From: a virus
Taxonomy: Duplodnaviria > Heunggongvirae > Uroviricota > Caudoviricetes
DNA: 4,200 nucleotides
Direction: 5' to 3' (one strand)
IMG/VR virus record: IMGVR_UViG_2695420412_000016
A program made the position numbers and the translations under genes. Of this stretch, positions 3,717 to 3,743 are shown piece after piece. Every line of letters starts with the position of its first letter. Within the stretch, counting starts at the first letter, position 1. The notes beneath the pieces were generated by a model. It was not told where the DNA came from and did no database searches. It worked only from the letters and a program-made list of their open reading frames with translations.

Positions 3717-3743
3717 AATAAAAAAGGCGCCATTTCTGGCGCC
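3717..3743 (-). terminator. Hairpin plus T-tract between the J stop and the chimeric lom-type start; variant of the 1555-1581 element with a compensatory base-pair change
   Basis: Minus strand reads GGCGCCA-GAAA-TGGCGCC-TTTTTTATT. Relative to the other two copies, stem position 5 is C instead of T and its partner is G instead of A, so pairing is preserved. Confidence 0.55.

Follow-up and report, generated by a model that had tools for sequence, protein, structure and literature searches.

The hairpin that stands before each lom-type start in this contig, together with the U-tract that follows it, is very probably a rho-independent terminator that closes the lambdoid tail-tip gene J, and it belongs to the 3′ end of that gene and not to lom. 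At the sequence level it shows all the hallmarks of intrinsic termination, exclusively on the sense strand, and its pairing has been conserved. We read it as an intrinsic terminator because every hairpin directly precedes the RNA tail UUUUUUAUU; the combination of a GC-rich hairpin and a U-tract makes ordinary RNA polymerase release. The initial annotation had offered two roles for the stem-loop, a terminator that insulates lom from upstream late transcription or a 5′-UTR element that controls lom translation. The terminator was the right choice, as indicated by the GC-rich stem, the GNRA loop, the sense-strand UUUUUUAUU and the annotation of phage mEp460. The finding is real but ordinary, being already known both in kind and in instance.

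The window, by which we mean the whole stretch of DNA analysed, is the entire 4200-bp draft contig CYFU01000130.1 (assembly GCA_001286305.1), which on look-up is reported in two samples. According to the sequence and the ORF list, its minus strand carries J, lom, stf and all three hairpins. In minus-strand order, the J C-terminal end (4200 to 3763) is followed by a 67-nt spacer and a 360-aa ORF (3695 to 2613); then come a 66-nt spacer, lom (2546 to 1947), a post-lom hairpin (1920-1899) and an stf fragment that runs into ~15 nt of J end; and last another 66-nt spacer, a further lom (1533 to 934), its post-lom hairpin (907-886) and the start of stf. The J 3′ end (3763-4200, minus strand) encodes a C-terminal domain that finishes with GISIS before the stop codon, belongs to PF12421 (Ig_GpJ_C) and is called J in homologous records.

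Copy 3 of the terminator (3717-3744, minus strand) begins 18 nt past the J stop codon (3763-3765) and consists, by terminator scan and fold, of the stem arms GGGCGCCA and UGGCGCCU around a GAAA loop, then UUUUUUAUU. Copy 2 (2568-2595, minus strand) has the arms GGGCGUCA and UGACGCCU, the same GAAA loop and the U-tract, and sits behind the J-type C-terminus of the 360-aa ORF, which is chimeric. Copy 1 (1555-1582, minus strand) is identical to copy 2 and sits behind a ~15-nt J 3′-end remnant joined to a truncated stf N-terminal fragment; both were delimited by scan, alignment and fold. As minus-strand RNA, these two copies read GGGCGUCA-GAAA-UGACGCC and the third GGGCGCCA-GAAA-UGGCGCC; the corresponding plus-strand letters are ggcgtcatttctgacgcc at 1564-1581 and 2577-2594, and ggcgccatttctggcgcc at 3726-3743. 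The sequences and positions originally given for the hairpin, GGCGTCA-GAAA-TGACGCC (1564-1581, 2577-2594) and GGCGCCA-GAAA-TGGCGCC (3726-3743), are borne out on the minus strand. The claimed T-to-C change at stem position 5, matched by an A-to-G change at its partner, likewise holds: alignment of the copies shows these to be the sole differences within the hairpin, turning the U-A pair of copies 1 and 2 into a C-G pair in copy 3. Counting the outer G-U (3744-3725), the stem comprises 8 pairs, of which 5-6 are G-C, and without it 7. A spacer length of 67 nt, claimed for all three copies, is correct for copy 3 but not for copies 1 and 2, which have 66 nt through a 1-nt indel; the distance from hairpin to GAGAGG, put at about 20 nt, measures 19 nt. 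The most informative feature was absent from the initial annotation: in each copy TTTTTTATT begins immediately 3′ of the stem, so that the RNA right after each hairpin is UUUUUUAUU and the full intrinsic-terminator form results.

A consensus terminator scan flagged all three copies on the minus strand only, each as 8 pairs closed by a loop of 4 nt and followed by a T-run. The scan also ruled out bidirectional termination, no T-tract coming after the stem on the plus strand. The hairpin alone has a predicted folding energy of -15.1 kcal/mol in copy 3 and -13.0 kcal/mol in copy 2, and in predicted folding the spacers are more stable than shuffled versions of themselves (z = -3.5, -3.5 and -2.7). 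When the window was compared with Rfam at E up to 1, no match appeared at or near the hairpin, only sub-threshold matches elsewhere. The stem is GC-rich and falls within the ~5-14 bp of intrinsic terminators, and its loop is short; a U-rich tract abuts it on the transcribed strand and is kept in nearly all homologues; and the whole lies just past a stop codon in gene orientation, on the J strand, with the same placement in lom-less phages.

A further mark of an intrinsic terminator, pairing that is kept while the sequence varies, is seen both in close homologues and in the unrelated stems of lambda, Citrobacter and a second lom class (class II). We gathered homologous spacers by four routes in which the stem sequence played no part: a scan of IMG/VR with the downstream RBS region as anchor, Lom-protein-anchored searches of species-representative genomes, and two Lom-protein-anchored searches of IMG/VR, one with the window's Lom and one with lambda's Lom. 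In an alignment of 40 distinct spacers, 96.2% of the stem cells hold standard pairs, and at three pairs both partners vary (GC/AU 25:13, CG/UA 26:9, AU/UA 34:4). The covariation score of 0.252, compared with 0.123 ± 0.013 in shuffles, was reached by 0/500 of them, and slid registers scored at most 0.116, all below the real register. A search for covariation in this spacer from many phages, which had been proposed as the check on the stem, has thereby been run on 40 distinct homologues, with a signal that beats all shuffles and all slid registers.

Within the close family there are three fully paired core alleles, GCGCC/GGCGC, GCGTC/GACGC and GCACC/GGTGC, in which two adjacent pairs each toggle between G-C-type and A-U-type via double transitions, and the wobble intermediates U-G and G-U are found among homologues. 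The loop varies as well, and its variants are still GNRA (GAAA, GGAA, GCAA and GAGA). Per-site diversity over the protein-anchored loci is high both at the 3′ end of J and in the spacer's 5′ portion, and the lom coding sequence is variable at scattered sites; inside the hairpin, only four sites are highly polymorphic, and they form two compensating pairs. In the window itself, four spacer positions distinguish copy 3 from copies 1 and 2, and the compensating pair accounts for two of them, an arrangement with a rough chance estimate of ~0.01 or less; each copy may represent the allele of a different co-resident prophage. The original argument that the RNA structure is maintained by compensatory change is upheld by the three covarying pairs, the high proportion of paired cells and the confinement of high polymorphism within the hairpin to compensating sites. 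Stem covariation is routine in terminators. Because the sequences are related (the window is one contig of a draft assembly) and recombining, the independent compensatory events are few, at least two in the close family. Selection on stem pairing would explain the U-A to C-G swap in the window, and would equally explain the G-C to A-U swap of the neighbouring pair seen elsewhere.

Mismatched hairpins make up ~5/101 distinct lom-linked contexts, and most of them resemble recombinants. Two (u020 and u032) have a 5′ arm from one allele and a 3′ arm from another, and several mismatched variants seem to have arisen by a crossover in the loop. In four IMG/VR contigs (loci including L006 and L180), the same stem is capped by TTTC in place of GAAA; this form is the whole hairpin reverse-complemented, a signature of strand-switch or inversion events at palindromes.

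Compensation in a palindrome can arise without selection, via hairpin-templated strand switching, and the TTTC-loop variants hint at such a process. The element might accordingly be supposed to matter as DNA, either as a protein-binding inverted repeat or as a hotspot of recombination or insertion, with its symmetry owed to hairpin-templated mutation and not to selection on RNA. The loop-inverted variants (4 instances) are in keeping with this supposition, as are the mosaic breakpoints in or next to the hairpin (the recombinant arms of u020 and u032, and the replaced 5′ arms of u061 and u075) and the edge of the lom cassette, which falls exactly at the U-tract. We nonetheless judge it very improbable. 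The T-tract is strand-specific, the loops are GNRA and the G-U wobble states pair only as RNA, while lambda, Citrobacter and class II keep the terminator architecture with unrelated stems; selection on RNA is therefore favoured. Moreover, mosaic phages would in any case be expected to have breakpoints at gene boundaries, and we know of no protein that binds the palindrome.

We attribute the hairpin, as an RNA terminator, to J because it is present without lom, and because lom occurs without it. A junction-anchored scan yielded 87 lom-less IMG/VR contigs in which stf comes straight after this J end and hairpin; they carry the same stem alleles, either compensated or wobble-paired. Three phage records match the query only as far as the end of the U-tract, and in ev017, ev207 and PhiR63_2 stf is the next gene after J, without lom. 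Reading of the ev017 and ev207 sequences reveals the same J end, spacer and hairpin GGGCGCCAGAAATGGCGCCTTTTTTATT immediately before TGTGGAGTGAATATG, the start of stf. In the other direction, one lom locus has no hairpin, and in two others the 5′ arm is replaced by foreign sequence. A description of the hairpin as a lom-linked element is not supported, since ev017, ev207 and the 87 IMG/VR contigs have the order J, hairpin, stf without lom.

The same observations bear on the suggestion that the hairpin is a 5′-UTR element controlling lom translation or mRNA stability. Its position 19 nt upstream of the RBS and the invariance of the stretch from U-tract to ATG in class I homologues both agree with the suggestion. 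No predicted fold, however, pairs the stem with the RBS or the start codon, and the RBS stays outside the hairpin in the folds, neither hidden nor exposed by it. The U-tract would be left unexplained, and the gene supposedly regulated is not linked to the element: stf comes after the hairpin in the 87 contigs and in ev017 and ev207, one lom locus does without the hairpin and two have lost most of its 5′ arm. Since the hairpin does not touch the RBS and persists without lom, translational control of lom is unsupported, and we find this second role from the initial annotation hardly credible.

As a terminator, a GC-rich stem of 7-8 bp with a GNRA tetraloop and UUUUUUAUU would release ordinary RNA polymerase. 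We infer the purpose of so strong a terminator in an operon that Q-modified polymerase reads through as follows. It would stop transcription not modified by Q, for example that from spurious or internal initiation in the prophage late region, and would probably also leave these RNAs with a stable 3′ end; once modified by Q, polymerase from the late promoter would read through to lom and stf in lytic growth. Insulation of lom from late transcription, the form in which the terminator was first proposed, is doubtful because Q makes RNA polymerase terminator-resistant (PMC4005639). Lom is also said to be strongly expressed in the lytic cycle, in a passage of PMC9836094 that cites Liu et al. 2013, and stf lies downstream of the J terminator in the same orientation. 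At most, the element would halt polymerase that lacks the Q modification.

The lom cassette spans GCAGAAAAGCGAGAGG, lom and its own terminator, and it is flanked precisely by the J hairpin's U-tract on one side and the stf RBS on the other. Presence or absence of lom at this joint of U-tract and stf RBS can be seen by comparing the window (3696-3725, minus strand) with its homologues (L323 1590-1625 and L324 1550-1585). The 5′ boundary of the cassette is the U-tract-to-ATG stretch (3696-3716, minus strand), GCAGAAAAGCGAGAGGTAATT with the RBS GAGAGG, which is missing in lom-less phages, where stf abuts the U-tract. From the U-tract through the lom ATG (~30 nt, 3696-3725) diversity is zero over 82 protein-anchored class I loci. 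There are two intact lom genes in the window, at 1947-2546 (minus strand; 199 aa, an Ail/Lom outer-membrane beta-barrel) and at 934-1533 (minus strand; 199 aa). The 3′ boundary of the cassette is a post-lom terminator at 1889-1920 (minus strand; hairpin 1920-1899), composed of AGCCCGCCGGTTCAGGCGGGCT and TTTTT and unrelated to the J hairpin; the terminator scan found its second copy at 876-907 (minus strand; hairpin 907-886). The lambda counterpart of the post-lom terminator is AGCCCGCCGGAACCGGTGGGCT at 19612-19633 (L002 913-934), with a G-U in the stem and another loop.

Mosaic joints cluster at the J-lom hairpin. Three lom loci (L188, L294 and L190) have no J upstream; in two of them the break falls within the stem, and foreign sequence stands where the hairpin's 5′ arm would be, and in the third the breakpoint is just past the U-tract and the hairpin is lost.

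Only 21 nt of the cassette precede the lom ATG, which leaves no room for a promoter. A simple consensus scan, which weak or non-sigma-70 promoters could escape, returned no sigma-70-like promoter anywhere in the window. A promoter over the hairpin and U-tract was also considered and rejected, the best -10-like element, TTTATT, having no acceptable -35 by eye and the scan being negative. Because the window has no promoter-like site, lom transcripts must begin upstream and cross the hairpin, and the hairpin could on this account be a leaky attenuator of lom: a promoter in the J 3′ end would drive lom in lysogens, most transcripts would terminate at the hairpin, and Q-modified polymerase would bypass it. 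The reported expression of Lom in lysogens (PMC7067206) fits such an arrangement, as does the lack of promoter space in the cassette. No promoter was detected in the J 3′ end, however, and the hairpin is retained in lom-less phages, so regulation of lom cannot be its primary role. We consider attenuation unlikely as an explanation of the hairpin; speculatively, it would be an added consequence compatible with the terminator and not a true alternative to it. We also regard as improbable a broader proposal, that the U-tract of the J terminator is both a preferred joint for accessory cassettes and part of a leaky lom attenuator, with stem strength (-13 vs -15 kcal/mol) tuning the Lom of lysogens.

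What is odd about the contig is that it holds three tandem lom copies, connected at unique junctions without homology. In the chimeric 360-aa ORF (2613-3695, minus strand; Ail_Lom and Ig_GpJ_C), Lom residues ~1-185 are in frame with a ~175-aa J C-terminal domain. Its Lom part is without the last ~14 residues, which form the terminal beta-strand ending in Phe, and its J part comes from an allele other than that at 3763-4200 (70-82% nt identity); the product is probably non-functional as an outer-membrane barrel. Junction A (~3143) joins lom to the J C-terminus and junction B (~1612) joins the stf fragment to the J end, with microhomology of at most 1-2 nt at these junctions. They are contiguous in none of 5,426 complete E. 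coli genomes, nor in IMG/VR, and junction B was not found in JGI metagenomes either. The triple-lom contig may reflect a rare illegitimate rearrangement that involved co-resident prophages, or else an artefact of the assembly or the library; the conclusion on the terminator is unaffected by its origin. At the other end of the window, the Stf N-terminus (3-869, minus strand) is followed by an Ala/Ser/Glu-rich low-complexity region and then by collagen-like Gly-X-Y repeats (GPPGPKGEQGPAGPQGPKGDKGERGDTGPVGATGERGPA) to the contig end. Among the loci collected, L133-L152, from Pseudomonas, Shewanella, Bacillus-like and other assemblies, are low-coverage ~48.4 kb contigs or fragments whose Lom match scores like lambda-type Lom; these non-enteric Lom matches are most likely contamination by phage lambda control DNA.

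For the annotation of lambdoid prophages, the J-lom hairpin is useful in that it marks the exact boundary of the lom cassette. It may also be of use to engineers of the J-lom-stf region, and beyond correct annotation it has little importance. The stem additionally offers a clean, small case of compensatory evolution through G-U intermediates.

Measured against the moron cassettes of lambdoid phages, of which Juhala et al. reportedly gave an account in 2000, lom is similar in being an insertion between J and stf that is present or absent, in having its own downstream terminator and in its prophage expression. The same flanks are found in lom-less relatives. Morons have been described with their own promoter (PMC3594210, Cumby et al. 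2012), and lom differs in this respect, no promoter being detectable upstream of it; it differs also in that the J-lom hairpin pre-exists outside the cassette. The Rac prophage of E. coli K-12 (L414 2390-2483) has neither the J-lom spacer nor the hairpin, and its lomR pseudogene overlaps or is joined to ynaA, a tape-measure-domain fragment.

In phage lambda, the J-lom hairpin is CGTCCG-GGAA-CGGGCG-TTTTATTAT at 18920-18935. Like that of the window, it lies between the J stop and the lom RBS in the same orientation and combines a GC stem (6-bp) with a GGAA loop and TTTTATTAT; unlike it, the stem has an unrelated sequence and lower predicted stability (centroid -8 kcal/mol). In 1983 Luk and Szybalski reportedly described tandem terminators, t'J, downstream of lambda J. 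A Citrobacter prophage has GAGCGCTC-ATTC-GGGCGCTT-TTTTTATT in the same place, again with an unrelated stem, and class II has GGGCACCTC-AGG-AGGTGCC or GGGCACC-CGAAGT-GGTGCC, then TTTTTTATT. Lambda, Citrobacter and class II thus have different stems and share the position and the architecture of hairpin plus U-tract. The closest known instance is phage mEp460 (GenBank JQ182728, 18380-18406), in which the homologous hairpin, between the host-specificity gene and lom, is annotated as a rho-independent terminator, an annotation that is the depositors' prediction. The mEp460 element differs from ours in its GGAA loop, where the window has GAAA, and in its 5′ spacer; it otherwise reads GGGCGTCA-GGAA-TGACGCC-TTTTTTATT, followed by an identical GCAGAAAAGCGAGAGGTAATTATG, and its stem equals that of copies 1 and 2.
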